Assembly (NCBI GenBank): GCA_964459475.1
Contig: CAYWLN010000003.1
Span: 1 to 36,510, forward strand
DNA from: an uncultured Bdellovibrionales bacterium
GTDB taxonomy: Bacteria > Patescibacteriota > Minisyncoccia > Moranbacterales > UBA1568
DNA: 36,510 nucleotides
Direction of reading: 5' to 3'
Every line of letters begins with the position of its first letter. Within the stretch, counting starts at the first letter, position 1. Below, in pieces: positions 2,360-10,735 of the stretch. Below the pieces are notes generated by a model, which was not told the origin of the DNA, searched no databases, and was given only the letters and a program-made list of their open reading frames with translations. Position numbers and translations under genes: made by a program.

Positions 2360-4159
2360 ATGAAACGCAATACACCAGAGCAGAGTATCCCTGCTCGTCC
2401 CATTCCTTTTCTTCGATTTATCAGTCGGCCATTTTGGCGTTATGCCGTGGCCACTTTTTTCTTTGTGACCGTGGCTCAATTACTCTCTATTGGGCTCCCG
2501 TTTGTGCTCAAGCTCTTGATCGATGCCCTGGCCCACGCTTCCGGTACCAAGGCACTGACTGAGGCGCTCCTCCACTATGGAGCTCTGTATGTAGCGCTCT
2601 CGACAGCCATGTTTATCGCTTGGCGAGTGAGTGGCTTTTGTGGCATCAACTGGTTGGCTCTCTCCAAAGCGTATTCTTTCCGATTACTCTACGAGTATAT
2701 TACGTTTCACAGTTATACTTATTTCTCCAACCGCTTTGCCGGAGCCATTGCCAACAAAATTTCCCATGCTTCTGATGGTGCTGATGACCTCATGGAGGAT
2801 ATCGTTTGGCACTACTATCCGTCGGTACTCTCTCTGTGTGGCACGGGGGTACTCCTCTTTATTACTGACGTCCGTCTCGCACTCGTCTTTCTCATCCTCG
2901 CCGTAGTCCTCATTGCGCTCAATATCTTCCTCGTGAAGCGTCGCCGACCACTCATCGTCGCCTATGCGGAGGCGTCGTCACTCCTCCGCGGAGTTGGAGT
3001 AGACCTCGTCACCAATATGTCATCGGTCCGCCAGTTTGATCGTCGACTCTTTGAACGAGAGCGACTGGATCAGTATATTGATGATCGCACCAAAAAGGAC
3101 ATCACTCGAGATCGCTCTCAAGAATGGGGTCTCCTCATCAACAACACGCTGGTGGTGATGGCCATTATCGTCATGATGTTCATCTTGGCGCGGGGTGTGA
3201 TGGCTGGAGTGCTCACTGCTGGGGATGTGGTCTTGGTGGTCTCGCTTATCTGGAGTACCTCGTATCAGCTGATCTTTATTGGCAATATGCTGAATGGCTT
3301 CATCCGAGTGTACAGCGAGATAGAAGAGGGGCTCACAGAGACACTTGTCGCGCACGACATCGTAGATGAATCAGGGGCGCAACCACTGGTCGTTCCAAAG
3401 GGACATATTCTCTGGCAGGACGTGGTGTTTCGCTATGATACTCATCCAGTACTCGATCACTTCAATCTCGATATTTTGCCCGGCCAACGACTTGGCCTTG
3501 TCGGTACGAGTGGTGCGGGCAAATCTACCTTTGTATCACTGCTCTTGAGGCAGTACGAAGTAAGTAGTGGCGCCATCCTCATTGATGATCAGAATATCTC
3601 ACACGTGACGCAGGATTCGCTCCGGACGATGATCGCGGTTGTCCCGCAGGAGCCTTCGCTCTTCCACCGTTCTATTCGGGAGAACATCGCTTATGGCAAG
3701 CCAGATTCGACGGAAGCAGAAATTATTGAAGTCGCCAAGAAGGCTGAGGCCCATGATTTTATTAGCGCTTTACCCCAAGGGTATGACACGCTCGTCGGTG
3801 AGCGAGGGGTCAAACTCTCTGGCGGTCAGCGCCAGCGTATCGCCATCGCCCGAGTGATGCTCAAGAATGCTCCGATACTTATCCTCGATGAAGCGACGAG
3901 CGCGCTCGATAGCGAGAGTGAAGTAGCAATCCAAAAGGCACTCCATGAACTCATGGCCGGAAAGACAGTGATCGCTATCGCTCATCGTCTCTCGACGCTC
4001 CGCGAGATGGACCGCATCATCGTCATGGACAAAGGAATGATTGTCGAAGATGGCAGACACGATGTCCTCGCGGCCGCTGGTGGCAAGTACGCCAAACTCT
4101 GGGAGCATCAGGCCGGAGGATTTCTCCAAGAAGAAGCAGAACAAAAAACCGACCACTAG
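2360..4159 (+). CDS. ABC transporter, fused permease/ATP-binding (MsbA/lipid or multidrug exporter type)
   Basis: N-terminal six-helix transmembrane domain. Walker A GTSGAGKST, ABC signature LSGGQRQR, Walker B ILILDEATSALD, H-loop AIAHRLST. Confidence 0.93.
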   Translation: MKRNTPEQSIPARPIPFLRFISRPFWRYAVATFFFVTVAQLLSIGLPFVLKLLIDALAHASGTKALTEALLHYGALYVALSTAMFIAWRVSGFCGINWLALSKAYSFRLLYEYITFHSYTYFSNRFAGAIANKISHASDGADDLMEDIVWHYYPSVLSLCGTGVLLFITDVRLALVFLILAVVLIALNIFLVKRRRPLIVAYAEASSLLRGVGVDLVTNMSSVRQFDRRLFERERLDQYIDDRTKKDITRDRSQEWGLLINNTLVVMAIIVMMFILARGVMAGVLTAGDVVLVVSLIWSTSYQLIFIGNMLNGFIRVYSEIEEGLTETLVAHDIVDESGAQPLVVPKGHILWQDVVFRYDTHPVLDHFNLDILPGQRLGLVGTSGAGKSTFVSLLLRQYEVSSGAILIDDQNISHVTQDSLRTMIAVVPQEPSLFHRSIRENIAYGKPDSTEAEIIEVAKKAEAHDFISALPQGYDTLVGERGVKLSGGQRQRIAIARVMLKNAPILILDEATSALDSESEVAIQKALHELMAGKTVIAIAHRLSTLREMDRIIVMDKGMIVEDGRHDVLAAAGGKYAKLWEHQAGGFLQEEAEQKTDH

Positions 4160-4175
4160 GTCGGCATTTTTGCAC

Positions 4176-4754
4176 CTACGATTTTAACTCATCTACCACC
4201 TTTGGAATTTTTTGAAAGTCTGCGATGAGCGTCTGGCGGAGGGAACCATTGTAGAGCGCGGCCGCCGGATGATAGAGAACAAAAAATGTCTGGGTGCCAA
4301 TATCTGGGAGTGTTCGAGTGAACGATTGACCATGCACCTCGGAAATTTTCTGGCCAGGAATGAAATGTTCCATGGCGTGACGACCGAGAGTGACAATAAC
4401 TTTTGGTCGGATAATCTTTATCTGTTCGTGAAGCCACTCTTCACAAGCGAGGACCTCTGCTGGAAGTGGGTCGCGATTGTCTGGCGGACGATATTTCACG
4501 ATGTTCGTGATGTAGATGTCTTCACGTTTGAGATTGATCGTGGCGAGCATCTCTGCTAAGAATTTGCCCGAGGCTCCAACAAACGGAACGCCCTGTTCAT
4601 CTTCTTTCTTACCGGGCGCTTCTCCGATAAACATGATGTCTGCATCAGGGTTGCCCACCCCTGGTACGGCCTGCGTGGCCGTCGACTTGAGAGTACATGT
4701 GCATGATGCTGCCATGCGAACATTGAGTGCATCGAGTGATTCCTGTTTCGTCAT
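4176..4754 (-). CDS. udg: uracil-DNA glycosylase, family 4
   Basis: Motif A GEAPGKKEDEQGVPFVGASG and motif B-like VLYHPAAALYN. The size of 192 aa is typical. Confidence 0.88.
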   Translation of the reverse strand: MTKQESLDALNVRMAASCTCTLKSTATQAVPGVGNPDADIMFIGEAPGKKEDEQGVPFVGASGKFLAEMLATINLKREDIYITNIVKYRPPDNRDPLPAEVLACEEWLHEQIKIIRPKVIVTLGRHAMEHFIPGQKISEVHGQSFTRTLPDIGTQTFFVLYHPAAALYNGSLRQTLIADFQKIPKVVDELKS

Positions 4755-4757
4755 AGA

Positions 4758-5717
4758 TTATGCAATGGCAAATCCTGTTTCGGTTTCAATAATTTTCCCT
4801 GGTACTTCGAATCCGCTGGCGAGCTTGTGTCCTCCCCCACCAAACTGATGAGCGATAAGCGAGACGTCGATGCCGTGGTGCTCCATAGAGCGGAGACTGG
4901 CCCTCACGATACAGGCATCACGTTCGGAGAGGACCATAGCGAACTTGGCATCGGGCACAGTGGAGAGTATCGATGCGACCTGGTAGATGTCTTCGGCACA
5001 GGCGTCACATTCGGCGATATCCTTTTGAGTGACTGCAGTGACGAGCATGCCGGTCTCCTTATTGAACTTGGCCTTTTCAAATGCCTTGCCCCAGAGCTTC
5101 ATCGCGCCGATATTTTTGTTGGTGAATATCGTCTGAGAAATTTTGGGGAGAGGCGCTCCTTTCTTCATGAGTTCAGAGGCGATCTCCATCACCCGAGGCG
5201 ACACTCCCCCGTGCTGAAAGCCACCCGTATCAAAGAGGATACCCATAAGAAGCATGGTGGCCATGGATTTACTGATGGGGGCGTCGATTGATTTGAGGTA
5301 AAGATAGAGGAGCTCTGAAGTAGACGAATATTCTGGGTCGATGATGACGACATCCCCCTTGAGCTCAATATCAGGGTGATGATCCATGAGCACGATAACC
5401 TGCTCCTCCTTGAACTGATCGATGAGCGTATCGAGACCTCGATCGACACTGTCGCATCCGATCACGGCATCATAACTCTTGAGATCCAGCTGGTCTGGGT
5501 GAAGAAAAGTATGTTCAGCTAGCCCCTTTAGATTATCGGGAAACGGGTTGAAGCAAGCGATATCGACGTGCTTCCCGAGCGAGCGGAGGTATTCCTCAAA
5601 AGCGAGGTTGGAACCTACTGTGTCTGGGTCCGGTCGGTTGTGTGCAAAAAGGAGTACCCGCTCCGCTCTGGAGATGATATAGGAAAGGGTACGGAATTCC
5701 TTGGCAAAACGATGCAT
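4758..5717 (-). CDS. nrnA: DHH/DHHA1 family phosphoesterase (NrnA-like oligoribonuclease / pAp phosphatase)
   Basis: Motifs HNRPDPDTVGS, GCDSVD, LMDHHPD (DHH) and FGGGGHKLASGF (DHHA1 GGGH). Confidence 0.85.
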   Translation of the reverse strand: MHRFAKEFRTLSYIISRAERVLLFAHNRPDPDTVGSNLAFEEYLRSLGKHVDIACFNPFPDNLKGLAEHTFLHPDQLDLKSYDAVIGCDSVDRGLDTLIDQFKEEQVIVLMDHHPDIELKGDVVIIDPEYSSTSELLYLYLKSIDAPISKSMATMLLMGILFDTGGFQHGGVSPRVMEIASELMKKGAPLPKISQTIFTNKNIGAMKLWGKAFEKAKFNKETGMLVTAVTQKDIAECDACAEDIYQVASILSTVPDAKFAMVLSERDACIVRASLRSMEHHGIDVSLIAHQFGGGGHKLASGFEVPGKIIETETGFAIA

Positions 5718-6139: not shown

Positions 6140-6214
6140 TGGTGCCCTCGGCAGGAGTTGAACCTACGTTTACTCGTTAGGAGTGAGTCGTTCTATCCAC
6201 TGAACTACGAGGGC
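6140..6214 (-). tRNA. tRNA-Arg (CCT), CCA encoded
   Basis: Minus-strand sequence GCCCTCG TA GTTC AGTGGATA GAAC G ACTCA CTCCTAA CGAGT AAAC GTAGG TTCAACT CCTGC CGAGGGC A CCA. There is one A-C mismatch at 31:39. Confidence 0.8.
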
Positions 6215-6284
6215 AATTGATCGATGATTTCTTGAGATAGCTCCCTGCCCGCCGGCAGGCAGGTATCCATTGAGCTACAGAGGC
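6215..6284 (-). other. truncated tRNA 5' copy B with a 20-nt GC hairpin inserted in the D-loop
   Basis: Minus strand: GCCTCTG TA GCTC AATGGATA [CCTGCC-TGCCGGCG-GGCAGG] GAGC, then non-tRNA sequence. The hairpin is at 6244-6263. There is no pairing anticodon stem, T arm or 3' acceptor. Confidence 0.6.
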
Positions 6285-6346
6285 ATAATTTATGAGTGAG
6301 TGTTCCCTGTCTACCGGCAGGCAGGTATCCACTGAACTACGAGGGC
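6285..6346 (-). other. truncated tRNA 5' copy A with a 20-nt GC-rich insertion in the D-loop
   Basis: Minus strand: GCCCTCG TA GTTC AGTGGATA [CCTGCCTGCCGGTAGACAGG] GAAC ACTCA CTCATAA, which then runs directly into copy B. The first 21 nt are identical to the intact tRNA-Arg. The anticodon-loop-like CTCATAA is at 6290-6296. The 3' half is absent. Confidence 0.6.
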
Positions 6347-6403
6347 TTGAGATGGCAAGAATGTACTGTACCACGGTATCTCAATAATATCAATGGAGCC
6401 GGT

Positions 6404-6594: not shown

Positions 6595-8370
6595 ATGCGA
6601 GTCTGGAGAAAATCCGCTATACTGAAGGCGAAATACTTCCTGACTGCTATGATTCGTATACTGGAACGTCTGCAACTGTCGAATATCTTTCTTCTTGGTT
6701 TCTTTTTGGTTCTCCCACTTTCACTCCGGCACACTTTTGTCGCCTGGAGTCCACTGGGGACGAGTGGCTTCAATGAGTATACTGACGTCTCAGTTTTTCT
6801 ATCGGACCTCGTGCTCCTGTGCTTTATTTTGCTAAAAATATTAGAAAACAAAAGAACATATTTGTCAATAAGTTGGTGGAGGGAAATGTTCCACGTGGAA
6901 CAATGGAAGCTAGCCGTTCTTTCGCCACTCCCCTTTTTGCTGTGGAGCCTCATTTCAACTTTGTGGTCAGAAAACCAATCGTTGGCTATTTATGCCTCAA
7001 TAAAGCTCATTGAAGGTTATTTGCTGTATCTGTTTTTATTGCTAACAATTGTTCCACGTGGAACAATTGAAGCGAGTGATAATAAAAGTTCCACGTGGAA
7101 CATGGCGGATTCGTTAAGTGTTGATCACAAATTGTTCCACGTGGAACAATCACAATCCAATATTTCTAAAGTTGTAAAAAATGTTCCACGTGGAACAATT
7201 GCTTTCTTGAGTCAGATTGTTTCAAAATGTTCCACGTGGAACATTCGTGGATACGTCATTCAAACACTCATTCTATCGGCATCTGCCCAGTCACTCGTTG
7301 CTTTGTATCAGTTTATGGCTCAAAAAAGCCTTGGACTAGCTTTCCTAGGTGAATCACAACTAGGGGCCCAGTGGCCAGGAATAGCCAAGATTCTTATGGA
7401 CGGAGAAGCAATCGTACGACCCTATGGCTTATTTCCGCACCCTAACGTTTTGGCTGGATTTTTAGGATTCGCGATTATTTTGGTAATATTGGAACCGATT
7501 CTTGGATCAGGAAAATTGTTCCACGTGGAACAATCACGGCTACTCTACCGTATCGTTCTTGGTACTCTCAGTTTTGTCTTTCTTGTCACTTTCTCAAAAG
7601 GAGCTATTCTAAGCCTCATTCTTGTTCTGTTTTATATATTTTGGCAAATGTTCCACGTGGAACAAATTATTCACGGTTCAGTAGTTAATACGATAACAAA
7701 TGTTCCACGTGGAACAATAGCGTATTTCAAACGCGTGTACTCGAATTGTTCCACGTGGAACATACATCAATACTGGTTGAAATTGTTCCACGTGGAACAT
7801 TTCTTTGTGGGAACTGTTTTTGTACTGGTTGGCGTTGTACTAGCGCTTGTGGTGCGTTCGCTTGATTGGTATTATTTCCTGTACCAACCTCTGACGGAGC
7901 GATGGCTCTACGTGCAAGGCTTTTTCAGAATGATTATTGATTCATTTTGGCTAGGTATCGGTCTTGGACAGTCTGTTTTCCTCATGCAACACTTTATTGA
8001 AAGAATCCTGTTTGACTGGGAGTTTCAGCCAATACATAACCTTTTTCTGTTAATATGGGCAGAGGTTGGACTAGTTGGCCTGGTCTTATTCGGCTATATT
8101 TGTTCCACGTGGAACAAAACTACTCAAATTCCAAAAATGTTCCACGTGGAACAATGCGTCCAGAAATTTGGTCGCAATCAAAACAATGTTCCACGTGGAA
8201 CAATTTATACTGTCGTCATTGAATCGATCTTTTCTCGAGGAATCTTACTCTATATCTTAATAACGAGCTTATTCGATCATTACTATTGGGATATTCAGCA
8301 GGGGCAACTCCTGTTCTGGACTGTCTGTGCTGTGGCAATTTCACTTAGACTCAGAGTATTGACAAAATAG
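6595..8370 (+). CDS. O-antigen ligase / Wzy_C-family polytopic membrane protein carrying 14 in-frame palindrome insertions
   Basis: Uninterrupted 591-aa ORF in AT-rich DNA, with a GGGAG-rich RBS upstream. Many hydrophobic helices. The family-typical segment is PIHNLFLLIWAEVGLVGLVLF (HN..L....E.G..G), together with LFPHPNVLAGFLGF. The hydrophilic stretches between helices contain the repeat-encoded peptides FHVEQ, VPRGT and STWN. An alternative start at 6649 is possible. Confidence 0.75.
   Translation: MRVWRKSAILKAKYFLTAMIRILERLQLSNIFLLGFFLVLPLSLRHTFVAWSPLGTSGFNEYTDVSVFLSDLVLLCFILLKILENKRTYLSISWWREMFHVEQWKLAVLSPLPFLLWSLISTLWSENQSLAIYASIKLIEGYLLYLFLLLTIVPRGTIEASDNKSSTWNMADSLSVDHKLFHVEQSQSNISKVVKNVPRGTIAFLSQIVSKCSTWNIRGYVIQTLILSASAQSLVALYQFMAQKSLGLAFLGESQLGAQWPGIAKILMDGEAIVRPYGLFPHPNVLAGFLGFAIILVILEPILGSGKLFHVEQSRLLYRIVLGTLSFVFLVTFSKGAILSLILVLFYIFWQMFHVEQIIHGSVVNTITNVPRGTIAYFKRVYSNCSTWNIHQYWLKLFHVEHFFVGTVFVLVGVVLALVVRSLDWYYFLYQPLTERWLYVQGFFRMIIDSFWLGIGLGQSVFLMQHFIERILFDWEFQPIHNLFLLIWAEVGLVGLVLFGYICSTWNKTTQIPKMFHVEQCVQKFGRNQNNVPRGTIYTVVIESIFSRGILLYILITSLFDHYYWDIQQGQLLFWTVCAVAISLRLRVLTK
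6887..6902. repeat. parS-like 16-bp perfect palindrome TGTTCCACGTGGAACA (copy 1)
   Basis: Exact palindrome read directly from the sequence. It is translated as MFHVEQ. Confidence 0.9.
7050..7243. repeat. cluster of 5 parS-like palindromes (copies 2-6)
   Basis: Core starts are 7050, 7087 (14-nt core GTTCCACGTGGAAC at 7088-7101), 7133, 7182 and 7228. The spacings are 37, 46, 49 and 46 bp, with unique AT-rich spacers. Confidence 0.9.
7517..7532. repeat. parS-like palindrome (copy 7)
   Basis: Exact TGTTCCACGTGGAACA, translated as LFHVEQ. Confidence 0.9.
7649..7799. repeat. cluster of 4 parS-like palindromes (copies 8-11)
   Basis: Core starts are 7649, 7701, 7747 and 7784. The spacings are 52, 46 and 37 bp. 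Confidence 0.9.
8101..8202. repeat. cluster of 3 parS-like palindromes (copies 12-14)
   Basis: Core starts are 8101, 8138 and 8187. The spacings are 37 and 49 bp. Confidence 0.9.
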
Positions 8371-8387
8371 TATTTTCGTGTTATAGA
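8359..8387 (+). promoter_or_regulatory. candidate promoter TTGACA-N17-TATAGA
   Basis: -35 at 8359-8364 (inside the last codons of the ligase-like ORF) and -10 at 8382-8387. It would produce a leader of about 260 nt before the ATG at 8658. Confidence 0.35.
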
Positions 8388-8583
8388 ATTTTATCGTACG
8401 ATTGAAGAGATACACCTCGAAATTGCGTCGAGAAATGCAACTTGACCCATGAGCGCACGAGGATATCAGTGAAGATATTTGGTGAAGCAAATTCAATACT
8501 GCGGTCATGAAATATATATGTCGTCATGAGTGGTGAGTACGATTTGTTTGATGAGGCACACACTTTTGCTGTTCGTAAAAAAA

Positions 8584-8601
8584 TGATATACTTTGAGTGA
8601 C
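8584..8601 (+). promoter_or_regulatory. extended -10 element TGaTATACT plus conserved downstream TTGAGTGAC
   Basis: TGATATACTTTGAGTGAC matches 27177-27194 at 17 of 18 positions. It lies 57 nt upstream of the ATG at 8658. Confidence 0.4.
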
Positions 8602-8657
8602 GTGAGAGTAATGAAGCCTCACATCGAGGACACAGGCGCTTAGAATAAAAACACAAT

Positions 8658-9668
8658 ATGTCGTTGGTACGTAAAGGCATTTCACAAGTAGAAATGAGAA
8701 CGTCGTTGTTTCTCTTTTTTGGTCTCCTCATTTTGAGTGTGACTTTTTTTGTATCGGCCGATGATACGATGACAGACAAAAATATTTTTCAGGATTCTGA
8801 TCAGGATGGTTTGAGCAATGACGAAGAAGCGCTCTATAAAACGGATCCACTTGATAAGGATAGTGATGACGATGGTTATACTGATGGTGTTGAGGTAGAG
8901 AGCGGGTATGATCCACTGAAGCCCGCTCCGGGTGACAGAGTTGTGTCAAATACTACAGTTCAAGCTAGCTCAACTCTGGGTGCTTCAGATTCACTGGGTG
9001 AAGTTGATGACGCAAATTTAACGACAGCAGTTTCGGAAGAGATCGCAGGGCTCATACAGCAGGGTAATTCTGCCGAGGGCGAAACAATTACGTTGGATGC
9101 AATTACGGAATCTGTCCAGGGTGTTATGGATAAATCTGATCAGGAAATTGTTCTGCCAGAAGTAGATATAGATTCTATTAATATCAAATCAGTCTCAAAG
9201 AAATTGAAAGGCGAGCGTCGTACAGAGGCTGAGAAGGAAGATATAGTTGAATACTTAACAGTGCTTGCTTATATCTTGGCCAACAATTCTCCGCAAAGTT
9301 TTAAGTCCGAGAAGGACCTTGGCTCTGTACTTACTTCAGCTGCGAGTGGAGCCCTTGGAGCAGTGACGACTGGCAATATGAAGTACCTGGAAGAGTTATC
9401 ATCGAAAAGTAATAAAATTCTATCGGAAATTGATACTATTGAAGTTCCTGAAGCCATGTTAGATGTTCATGTAAAGGCTATTAAAATGGTGAAGTATTCC
9501 TCTCAACTGAAGGATGAGGTAAAGCTTGATAATATTGATGATCCGATTGGTCAGATTTCTTCACTTGGAAAGGTACAGGGTTTCTTGTCAGCCTCTGTAG
9601 ATTTTTCATCTGAAATTTATGCGAAATTACAGACGTATAAAATTGATACTATTCCTTTGAGTCTCTGA
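8658..9668 (+). CDS. secreted or membrane-anchored protein with thrombospondin-type-3-like Asp-rich calcium-binding repeats
   Basis: Hydrophobic N-terminus (LFLFFGLLILSVTFFVSA), with an alternative ATG at 8694. Repeats DSDQDGLSNDEE and DKDSDDDGYTDGVE are present. The remainder is not recognised. Confidence 0.65.
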   Translation: MSLVRKGISQVEMRTSLFLFFGLLILSVTFFVSADDTMTDKNIFQDSDQDGLSNDEEALYKTDPLDKDSDDDGYTDGVEVESGYDPLKPAPGDRVVSNTTVQASSTLGASDSLGEVDDANLTTAVSEEIAGLIQQGNSAEGETITLDAITESVQGVMDKSDQEIVLPEVDIDSINIKSVSKKLKGERRTEAEKEDIVEYLTVLAYILANNSPQSFKSEKDLGSVLTSAASGALGAVTTGNMKYLEELSSKSNKILSEIDTIEVPEAMLDVHVKAIKMVKYSSQLKDEVKLDNIDDPIGQISSLGKVQGFLSASVDFSSEIYAKLQTYKIDTIPLSL

Positions 9669-9673
9669 AGTGT

Positions 9674-10735
9674 ATGTTTAGTCTACGCCACTACATAGCA
9701 AAGAAATTTTTTACGGTACTATTTGTTACTGTGTCAATTATTGGCCCGTCTCTTTTCCCGTTACGGGCTCATGCACAGGTTTGGGGTACGGATGATATTT
9801 TTGGTGATTTGGTAAAGCAAATGCTCGAGGTGGTTAAATCCCAAATTGATGGAGCAATTCTTGCTACTATAAAAGTAGCTGCAATTTCTGCCATGAATAG
9901 CAAAGTAGCTCAGATGATAGGGGGTACTTCACTTGGTGACCAACTCTTTATCTCAGATTGGAATGATTACTTGTATCAAAAGCCAGCCGAGCAAACGAAG
10001 CTTATCATGAACGATTTCTTTACACTGACTACTCGTGGCAAGTACGCTTCGGCCAACTATGTGGGAGTAGGGGATGTTACCGGGAGTGTTTCTGGGAACT
10101 ATCCAGCGTACCTGGTAGCACAAGCACAGCAGTCGATTGGCGATGAGAGCGCCGGACAAGCCGGCTTGGAATATAACCTGGATAGTTATTGCGCCAGTCC
10201 AGATGTCTTGTTTCAGGAGGGTGACTTCAGATGTTTTAATGCTATGATTTCGAATCCAGCTAATAATCCATTTGGGTATACCCTTTCCGCAACAGCATAC
10301 TACGCAAGAACGATGAATCAGAAGATTGAGCAGGCCAGGACGGAGGCCCAGTCATCAGGATATATCGGTAAAAAGCAAAATGGAATGACTATCGCGCCAG
10401 CGGCTACCATTGAAAATATGATGTCTGATGTTCAGAACATTGGAAACAATGTGATTGCTGCTGCGGAGAATCCGGGAATACTTTCAGGTATTGTCCAAGC
10501 AGCCATGAATCGGATTATTTCTAACATGATTCAAAAGGGCATTGGTAATGTTCAGGCAAAAATTCAACGTGAAATTAAGCGCGTTGATAATCAAGTGGTT
10601 GGCGCTTTGGATAAGGCTAATAAGCAGCTTGGTCCCGCAGCCAAATTTACCAAGGAGTGGAGTCAAAAATCTAATGTGGTAAAACCGTACACGGCACCAC
10701 CACCAGCGGCTTGTAGTGTTGAGCAAGGTTGTTAA
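9674..10735 (+). CDS. secreted hypothetical protein
   Basis: Signal peptide ending in LRAHAQ. The start is 5 nt after the preceding stop, consistent with an operon. The C-terminus is Pro- and Cys-rich (PPPAACSVEQGC). No family was recognised. Confidence 0.6.
   Translation: MFSLRHYIAKKFFTVLFVTVSIIGPSLFPLRAHAQVWGTDDIFGDLVKQMLEVVKSQIDGAILATIKVAAISAMNSKVAQMIGGTSLGDQLFISDWNDYLYQKPAEQTKLIMNDFFTLTTRGKYASANYVGVGDVTGSVSGNYPAYLVAQAQQSIGDESAGQAGLEYNLDSYCASPDVLFQEGDFRCFNAMISNPANNPFGYTLSATAYYARTMNQKIEQARTEAQSSGYIGKKQNGMTIAPAATIENMMSDVQNIGNNVIAAAENPGILSGIVQAAMNRIISNMIQKGIGNVQAKIQREIKRVDNQVVGALDKANKQLGPAAKFTKEWSQKSNVVKPYTAPPPAACSVEQGC

Follow-up and report, generated by a model that had tools for sequence, protein, structure and literature searches.

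Among described systems, the closest in logic to the locus reported here is SegB, a free-standing GIY-YIG homing endonuclease encoded in the tRNA gene cluster of phage T4, which cuts a rival genome in its tRNA gene region and thereby favors the inheritance of its own gene together with the flanking tRNA alleles (PMC2330249; PMC13096335). SegB has recently also been reported to promote segmental amplification of the tRNA locus (PMC13096335). Our subject is the tRNA-Arg(CCT) locus of a 36.5-kb stretch of DNA from an uncultured bacterium (hereafter the window, i.e., this whole stretch of DNA), whose NrnA and RbfA homologs place the host in Candidatus Moranbacteria/Moraniibacteriota, a lineage of the candidate phyla radiation (CPR). 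Two tandem 5′ fragments of tRNA-Arg genes, units A and B (6215 to 6346, minus strand), stand there directly upstream of an intact tRNA-Arg gene, each interrupted by a GC-rich hairpin. We consider it probable that they are hairpin-plugged stumps of displaced tRNA-Arg(CCT) genes and that they belong, as members devoid of an open reading frame (ORF), to a homing-type arrangement in which a small GIY-YIG ORF lies between such a stump and an intact tRNA gene. With SegB this arrangement shares a GIY-YIG nuclease gene among tRNA genes. However, SegB is a full-size, phage-borne, I-TevI-like enzyme with a DNA-binding domain, whereas the ORFs of the arrangement are chromosomal, specify 80-94 amino acids (aa) that amount to a catalytic domain only, fall by sequence in the Slx1/UPF0213 branch, overlap the 5′ end of a tRNA gene and are accompanied by a hairpin-plugged stump; cleavage by their products is putative.

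In collaborative homing, exemplified by cyanophage psbA and F-CphI, a free-standing endonuclease acts alongside a group I intron that disrupts its site, and the insert protects the allele that carries it. An insert that interrupts the target and travels with a neighboring nuclease gene is common to both situations. The term collaborative homing itself appears in PMC2988022 and PMC3984707. There, the intron is spliced and the gene is functional, whereas the insert considered here is an unspliceable 20-nt hairpin, function is kept by a second, intact tRNA gene, and any immunity conferred by the hairpin is putative. Mobile endonuclease ORFs of fungal mitochondria, such as that of Allomyces atp6, bring in a replacement for one end of a gene, the displaced end persisting as a pseudogene. 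Invasion by a nuclease ORF likewise results in a partial gene duplication, with a hybrid functional copy next to a displaced fragment, but the mitochondrial cases concern 3′ ends of protein genes in organelles, in contrast to the tRNA genes, mostly 5′ ends, bacterial chromosomes and obligatory hairpin of the present arrangement. Short GC-rich mini-elements form another comparison: GC clusters of yeast mitochondria, double-hairpin elements of Allomyces, PstI palindromes flanking tRNA genes in Neurospora, and repetitive extragenic palindromic (REP) sequences of bacteria. They too are conserved noncoding hairpins in many scattered copies, sometimes beside tRNA genes or mobile ORFs; the palindrome described below differs in being only 20 bp long, identical across phyla, placed precisely in the loops of tRNA pseudo-copies, free of target duplication there and unaccompanied by a transposase of the REP-associated tyrosine (RAYT) type. 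Finally, the attL/attR sites of integrases also place a partial tRNA copy beside an intact tRNA gene, whereas at our locus the opposite tRNA end is duplicated, there is no integrase and no element between the copies, and the copies contain an internal palindrome.

The locus is read on the minus strand. A promoter scan identified a promoter-like site, TTGATA-17-TACAGT (6365 to 6393), as the candidate driver of unit A, unit B and tRNA-Arg. Unit A (6285 to 6346) was assigned by sequence and repeat comparison to an allele that we call type I, whereas unit B (6215 to 6284) matches a second allele, type II, that is found intact in relatives. In unit A, tRNA positions 1-21 (GCCCTCGTAGTTCAGTGGATA; 6346-6326) are followed by a decayed palindrome with 2 mismatches to the perfect form (CCTGCCTGCCGGTAGACAGG; 6325-6306), by tRNA positions 22-38, marked by a single deletion and by decay of the anticodon loop (GAACACTCACTCATAA; 6305-6290, 15 of 17 nt matching) and, after 6290, by a 5-nt tail, ATTAT. 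Unit B consists of tRNA positions 1-21 (GCCTCTGTAGCTCAATGGATA; 6284-6264), the palindrome with 1 mismatch (CCTGCCTGCCGGCGGGCAGG; 6263-6244) and tRNA positions 22-29 (GAGCTATC; 6243-6236), then a 21-nt spacer up to the intact gene. The current occupant of the locus is a type I tRNA-Arg(CCT), presumably functional, at 6140 to 6214 (ARAGORN; Rfam RF00005, 64.8 bits). A repeat finder aligned the three 21-nt copies at the locus with identities of 100%, 76% and 100%. Both stumps start at tRNA position +1, upstream of the intact gene and on the same strand, with homology to position 38 in unit A and to the type II allele in unit B.

In both units the insert sits in a cloverleaf loop, exactly between tRNA positions 21 and 22 (GGATA/GAAC or GGATA/GAGC), and both inserts derive by decay from a single perfect 20-bp palindrome, CCTGCCTGCC/GGCAGGCAGG. 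The T arm and the 3′ acceptor strand are missing from both. An earlier note, made from the sequence alone, had described two truncated tRNA copies carrying a 20-nt GC-rich insertion at the same D-loop position before an intact tRNA-Arg(CCT), with the first 21 nt of unit A identical to that gene and no T arm or 3′ acceptor strand in either copy; sequence inspection, ARAGORN and Rfam agree with this description, including the 21/21 match. The stretch CTCATAA, which the note had likened to an anticodon loop, does lie at the anticodon-loop position of unit A, but it is a decayed CTCCTAA rather than a Met-like loop, since the A-like unit of a relative (L252) keeps CTCCTATAA. The 12-mer CCTGCCTGCCGG occurs exactly 3 times in the window, and all three exact copies sit in tRNA stumps, the third one in a tRNA-Leu stump described below that is absent from the earlier account. 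With up to 2 mismatches allowed there are 10 matches against 2.19 expected, a number that none of 100 shuffles reached. Units A and B together with tRNA-Arg are base-for-base identical in five independent assemblies (L121-L125) encoding the same RbfA, which rules out an assembly artefact.

To place the units in context, the orthologous locus (tRNA-Ala, terminator, promoter, tRNA-Arg, rbfA and nrnA) was compared in about 30 related contigs. Stumps are present in the window, L121-125, L126 and L252. The site is empty, with the promoter leading directly into tRNA-Arg(CCT), in L128-131, L134-136, L253, L258 and L265, relatives whose neighboring NrnA or RbfA proteins are 86-91% identical to those of the window. 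The promoter, TTGATA-17-TAnAGT, is conserved among the relatives, and the alignment assigns CCATTGATA..GTGGTAnAGT to filled and empty loci alike. The tRNA-Arg(CCT) genes at this position belong to two markedly different alleles, which alternate among relatives. Type I reads GCCCT[CT]GTAGTTCA..GGATAGAACGACTCACTCCTAACGAGT and occupies the locus in the window, L131, L134-136, L253 and L258; type II begins GCCCC[CT]GTAGCTCAATGGATAGAGCTATCCCGTCCTAAGGG and is found in L128-130, L265 and L271. Unit A (positions 1-38) and today's intact gene match type I, and unit B (positions 1 to about 29) matches type II. The remnants themselves vary. In L126 (NrnA 92% identical) unit B carries five differences and unit A diverges into unrelated sequence after nt 12. 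In L252 (NrnA 90%), the end of an A-like unit (..GGCAGG GAACACTCACTCCTATAA) precedes an intact type I tRNA, behind which lies a 3′ stump in which a perfect palindrome in the T-loop separates CTCCAGGTTC from GATTCTCTGCCGAGGGCACCA. L271 has an intact type II gene and, behind it, a type I 3′ stump whose T-loop contains a hairpin. The 3′ stumps of L252 and L271 are mirror-image remnants of the 5′ units.

The order of events is suggested by a 1084-nt contig of a related strain (strain W), recovered from a wastewater metatranscriptome run (X6) and containing tRNA-Ala, the promoter, unit A, the 21 nt that start unit B, a T arm and rbfA. After these 21 nt, 98 nt of the window are skipped and 28 nt (GAGCTATCGCGTCCTAAGCGAGAGATCC, minus strand) stand in their place before the contig rejoins the window at the T arm. 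Judged by this sequence, unit A of strain W stands before a type II-like tRNA that is uninterrupted and begins as unit B does. The palindrome of unit A is perfect in this contig (6310 T>C, 6313 A>G), and that of unit B is perfect in other contigs (6250 C>T). Palindromes that are perfect in some strains and bear 1-2 substitutions in the window, together with strain-specific indels in the anticodon loop, form a pattern of decay. The empty sites, the strain with A before an intact B and the two alternating alleles identify the units as scars of two successive gene replacements. Each time, the resident tRNA-Arg would have been displaced by an incoming tRNA-Arg copy, leaving its promoter-proximal 5′ piece with the D-loop interrupted at 21/22. 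A type I gene would have been displaced first, leaving unit A before an intact type II gene; displacement of the latter would then have left A, B and today's type I gene, so that the youngest stump would be the one nearest to the gene. This corresponds to one of the explanations floated in the earlier note, in which an element targeting the D-loop left scars and the gene was then replaced, and it is supported by the empty sites, the strain W layout, the alternation of alleles and the recurrence of the same stump in many phyla.

No GIY-YIG ORF was detected in the 36.5-kb window by a profile search of all six-frame ORFs, so none lies between the units and tRNA-Arg. Given this absence and the short spacers after the stumps, we file units A and B with other ORF-less relics (L016, L043, L078 and L090). 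The spacer of unit B translates as YLKKSS, which was considered as a relic of the KYLKSG motif of the ORF; it is too short to judge and has no profile match. A Moranbacteria relative, L261 (RbfA 91% identical), does contain an 84-aa GIY-YIG ORF (181-435) between tRNA-Ala and tRNA-Arg, with its stop codon overlapping the −35 box of the tRNA-Arg promoter. This ORF is related to the stump-linked family (Pfam E=1e-16; hhalign probability 98%). The position that holds a palindrome-bearing tRNA-Leu stump in the window is occupied in L257 by a completely different tRNA-Leu(TAA) allele; a 228-aa LAGLIDADG-type ORF (4077-4763, minus strand; weak Pfam match) lies directly upstream of that allele and extends into it, a layout suggesting that a second nuclease family uses the same arrangement.

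The wider distribution was approached in two ways. A palindrome-first scan for TGGAWW followed by CCTGCCTGCCGG, with one genome per species, returned at least 120 loci. By our own calculation about 70 chance matches to such an 18-mer are expected at uniform composition; we therefore dropped the raw count as evidence and relied only on the tRNA context shared by about 40 of the matches listed, which consist of ..GTAGYTCARYTGGATA, the perfect palindrome, GAGC or GAAC and more tRNA. The carriers include Bacteroidota (among them isolates of Agriterribacter, Flagellimonas and Hanstruepera), the CPR groups Roizmanbacteria, Saccharibacteria and Kuenenbacteria, and members of Omnitrophota, WOR-3 and Chlorobiota. 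Among the cultured carriers, Flagellimonas beolgyonensis KCTC 23501 (L049) has the ORF, and Hanstruepera neustonica JCM 19743 (L057) has the unit, with part of an ORF inside the stretch analyzed. The perfect palindrome, CCTGCCTGCCGGCAGGCAGG, is identical across these phyla, which implies a conserved recognition or insertion machinery. Among the matches listed, 39 are perfect units of TGGATA plus palindrome; an intact tRNA follows within 1.2 kb in about 30 of them (ARAGORN), always a tRNA-Arg but with any anticodon, and about 25 of the 39 units listed have an ORF of 80-94 aa between stump and intact tRNA. The ORF begins a few nucleotides past the end of the stump, and its frame ends inside the intact tRNA, the stop often being the TAG of GGATAG, which yields tails such as ..KWSGSSAG. 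The stump copies the neighboring tRNA, starting at +1 and ending anywhere from position 29 to 62, and in some cases it also takes in about 20 nt of upstream flank.

The second, ORF-first sample comprised the 80 best metagenome loci and is not biased toward the palindrome. A tRNA was located at the end of the ORF in 44 of these 80 best loci (31 Arg, 5 Leu, 2 Thr, 2 Gln, and 1 each of Gly, Asn, Glu and Lys). All 44 could be aligned to an upstream partial copy of the same tRNA with at least one GC-rich hairpin insert, clearly so in 42, the stump alignments of the other two (L192 and L201) being unreliable. The inserts measure 16-23 nt or multiples thereof. Inserts fall most often at sites 21/22 (29 of about 80), and the remainder occur at 8-9, 12, 15-17, 32-35 and 53-55, mostly in cloverleaf loops and junctions. 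Stumps without the palindrome carry other hairpins, often with C(TTCG)G or C(GAA)G loops, up to four of them in L216. The unit recurs in related genomes and in other phyla. In the full-text literature that we searched, neither the palindrome nor tRNA stumps linked to GIY-YIG ORFs are described, an absence that is not proof of novelty. The arrangement of tRNA stump, hairpin, GIY-YIG ORF and intact tRNA is very widespread and apparently undescribed.

The ORF encodes a GIY-YIG domain (Pfam PF01541, E=2.7e-18) for which no specific NCBIfam model exists. It has invariant Y, R and E residues. Among solved structures, the UPF0213 proteins 1ywl and 1zg2 are nearest to it, with SLX1 next; these are structure-specific nucleases. 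By sequence, it belongs to the Slx1/UPF0213 branch and not to that of I-TevI. This minimal, structure-specific GIY-YIG branch has been described (PMC1564403). At least 6892 protein clusters match the ORF, and they are named only "GIY-YIG nuclease family protein" or "putative endonuclease."

From these features a mechanism can be proposed. The general layout would be a promoter, a stump from +1 with a GC hairpin, a minimal GIY-YIG ORF reading into the next gene, and the intact tRNA. The putative nuclease may act like a free-standing homing endonuclease that breaks tRNA genes, and repair from the carrier locus would copy in the ORF together with an intact spare tRNA, leaving the end of the resident gene as a stump. 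The hairpin might serve as an unspliced plug that renders the stump both unusable and uncuttable, or it might be a structure handled by the Slx1-like nuclease. After fixation, the nuclease gene would degenerate and then be lost, leaving relics such as A and B. The stumps would be transcribed within a 5′ leader of about 150 nt, presumably removed by an RNase P cut at the +1 position of tRNA-Arg. Site polymorphism, allele replacement and the truncated, decaying ORFs of L061 and L101 are indirect signs of homing, in which cleavage is the putative step. A further role considered for the hairpins, as homology breakers that prevent deletion of the ORF, is weakened by the stumps of L173 and L217, which keep 55-59 nt of uninterrupted identity.

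Several points weigh against the homing interpretation. Between stump and tRNA-Arg, none of the Moranbacteria relatives examined has a GIY-YIG ORF, so that the nuclease link at the window locus rests on the family pattern and on L261. The nuclease activity, the target and the homing of the ORF are themselves putative. The 3′ part of the strain W tRNA is deduced from the contig and was not directly read. Stumps of Bacteroidota are identical to the adjacent intact tRNA, which looks more like in-place duplication than import of a foreign allele. The intact tRNA copy beside the nuclease gene would be expected to be a target itself unless it is somehow protected. The interpretation supplies no route by which a constant 20-bp palindrome would be inserted precisely and without target duplication, and the palindrome also occurs in many non-tRNA contexts with no GIY-YIG gene nearby.

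Besides those many contexts, the palindrome was found in 35 stretches of viral contigs. At the tRNA sites there is no target duplication, removal of the insert restoring GGATA/GAGC exactly. Some non-tRNA copies (L007, L139, L145, L155 and others) lie between short direct repeats of the flank (CACAGAGA, TCTCGTCTCTCGCT and TTGCGGA), and others lie within arrays of 7-8-nt repeats (TGTGNAAA, on a Chitinophagaceae chromosome). These flank repeats hint at either target duplication or slippage around the hairpin. No transposase associated with the palindrome was identified among the copies examined. The rival that survives best, even though we judge it unlikely, is that REP-like or GC-cluster-like hairpin mini-elements insert independently wherever they are tolerated, that the stumps arose by ordinary local duplication or recombination, and that the GIY-YIG ORF is a passenger rather than the driver. 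The non-tRNA copies without a GIY-YIG gene, which often form arrays, speak for such elements, as do the lack of an ORF at the stumps of the window and its closest relatives and the high variability of the hairpin sequences. On the other side, a hairpin stump is clear in 42 of the 44 loci that combine the GIY-YIG ORF with a tRNA, and the other two cannot be judged, an association hard to obtain from unrelated processes. Moreover, no hairpin-free stump was seen, the inserts concentrate at site 21/22, and within the window the palindrome is confined to tRNA stumps (3 of 3 exact copies).

As a separate observation, two viral contigs (L161, about 2240-2340; L138, about 8570-8660) contain a tRNA-Met(CAT) of seemingly full length whose variable loop houses the perfect palindrome, between ..CACGAGG and TCGCCGGTTCGAATCC..; the hairpin would mimic a long variable arm.

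Less probable still is a functional leader, an explanation also raised in the earlier note, in which the stumps and hairpins would constitute a selected 5′ leader of tRNA-Arg that serves as a processing platform, a stabilizer or a decoy for tRNA-binding proteins or nucleases. The units do lie between promoter and tRNA, hence in transcribed DNA, and contigs from RNA runs cover them at the depth of the neighboring rbfA, a coverage to which DNA carry-over may contribute. Their sequence is also unchanged across five assemblies, among them L125 with its different promoter region, and the fold of the leader is more stable than that of shuffled sequence (z = −2.6), largely owing to possible pairing between the two palindromes. 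However, the units are dispensable, being wholly absent in relatives with 86-91% identical NrnA or RbfA, and in L126 unrelated sequence replaces unit A after nt 12. Mismatches in the palindromes are uncompensated, strains differ by substitutions and indels, and Rfam yields no match at the units even at E ≤ 10. Indeed, at both the gathering threshold and E ≤ 10, Rfam matched only the intact tRNAs. These comparisons leave the leader or processing module unsupported.

A further suggestion of the earlier note, that A and B are 5′ halves of split tRNAs joined in trans to 3′ halves with the GC element as a pairing handle, as in Nanoarchaeum, is scarcely credible. It would account for the clean 5′ acceptor strand and D-arm of each unit and for the GC-rich, self-complementary element that follows. 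Yet no T arm with a complementary acceptor strand exists in the window to provide a 3′ partner, and the acceptor search recovers only the intact tRNA. ARAGORN in intron mode with a relaxed score found nothing at the units, reporting only spurious intron-containing tRNAs in coding regions. The GC element is a palindrome inside the D-loop rather than a trailer after the half, and there is no bulge-helix-bulge. The host is bacterial, not archaeal, and to our knowledge it has no tRNA splicing endonuclease. Finally, strain W has an intact version of the tRNA of which unit B is an interrupted copy, and the units come and go between near relatives and decay between strains.

That the fragments are att-site duplications left by a lost phage or island is likewise extremely improbable, as the earlier note had already anticipated in setting them apart from the usual 3′-end duplications of integrases: tRNA genes are classic integration sites marked by partial tRNA duplications, but the part duplicated here is the 5′ end from +1, the copies are adjacent with only 5-25 nt between units, no integrase occurs among the neighboring ORFs and no island is present, no integrase-bearing island was seen between stump and tRNA in 30 related loci, and the same 20-bp palindrome lies inside stumps of unrelated phyla. 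A tRNA group I intron was discarded, given an insert of only 20 nt in the D-loop against a ribozyme core of at least about 200 nt in the anticodon loop; Rfam returned no intron family at the units at E ≤ 10.

Beyond the displaced-stump interpretation itself, we put forward a bolder proposal, which we hold only tentatively and would not yet favor. The GC palindrome and the Slx1-like ORF might together be an unrecognized selfish element that invades tRNA genes across phyla by what could be called "spare-copy homing," disabling the resident copy with an unspliceable loop plug. The hairpin would be the immunity determinant or a grip for the nuclease, the intact tRNA would be supplied or regenerated downstream, and a continual turnover of tRNA alleles would leave stumps such as A and B. 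If the homing interpretation is right, replacement of tRNA genes is much commoner than has been supposed in CPR, Bacteroidota and other phyla, and its vehicle is a very small nuclease cassette that annotation pipelines label only generically. The tRNA-like fragments and odd GC hairpins found beside tRNA genes would then be accounted for. Such turnover would also caution against the use of tRNA alleles as vertical markers and give the large, functionally unassigned UPF0213/Slx1-like family of bacterial GIY-YIG proteins a concrete biological role. Locally, A and B are a pair of decaying pseudogene stumps, not split tRNAs, and of little consequence to the cell; their value lies in pointing to tRNA gene turnover that is associated, across phyla, with a minimal GIY-YIG nuclease and a conserved GC palindrome.

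The window holds further stumps on its plus strand. A palindrome-bearing 5′ stump of tRNA-Leu (2231 to 2271) lies 7 nt upstream of an intact tRNA-Leu(TAA) (2279-2359). It is composed of GGGCAGGGTGGTGGAAT (2231-2247), a 16-nt form of the palindrome, CCTGCCTGCCGGCAGG (2248-2263), and GGCATACA (2264-2271), and the third exact copy of CCTGCCTGCCGG falls within it. The 5′ end of the intact gene reads GGGCGAGTGGTGGAATGGTATACA, and the stump is thus of the same construction as A and B on another tRNA. An exact counterpart with the same insertion point, a tRNA-Leu stump of L011, precedes a GIY-YIG ORF; other tRNA-Leu stumps were found in L217, L237, L241 and L248. Between the tRNA-Leu stump and the intact tRNA-Cys (2041-2114), just downstream of the latter, is the 3′ stump of a displaced tRNA-Cys allele (2145 to 2189), made up of GGTTC, a 19-nt GC-rich insert in the T-loop (2150-2168) and AATTCCGGACGCGACCTCACA. 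Its last 18 nt are identical (18/18) to the 3′ end of a different tRNA-Cys allele that is intact in L257. A weaker possible remnant of tRNA-Cys is located at about 2206-2223. The high-GC left end of the window was also considered as an integrated island ending at tRNA-Leu, an idea rejected because the tRNA-Cys promoter region is homologous in L257, so that no island boundary exists there.

Remnants of tRNA-Ala occur in relatives. One of them, in L258, is a tRNA-Ala stump interrupted by a 32-nt hairpin at the D-loop site used in units A and B. In L134 (about 1137-1300), and also in L131, L135, L136 and L265, an intact tRNA-Ala is followed by a GC-rich insert of 60-170 nt and then by a duplicate of the tRNA-Ala 3′ end (..TTCCGGCATGGTCCAC). 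These 3′-end duplicates are another kind of tRNA remnant.

A different palindrome, 14 nt long, marks another part of the window. It reads GTTCCACGTGGAAC, usually TGTTCCACGTGGAACA, and is present in 14 copies between 6888 and 8201, all confined to a Wzy_C/O-antigen-ligase-like ORF (6595-8370, plus strand); the rest of the window has none. All three reading frames are used, giving FHVEQ, VPRGT and STWN. The orthologous Wzy_C gene of relatives has 11-15 copies at partly different positions. This looks like a second, different habit of palindromic insertion, within a coding gene. Over 7001-10000, which covers the Wzy_C gene and the next two ORFs for secreted or membrane proteins, the G+C content falls to 0.39-0.42, as against 0.50-0.57 in most of the window.

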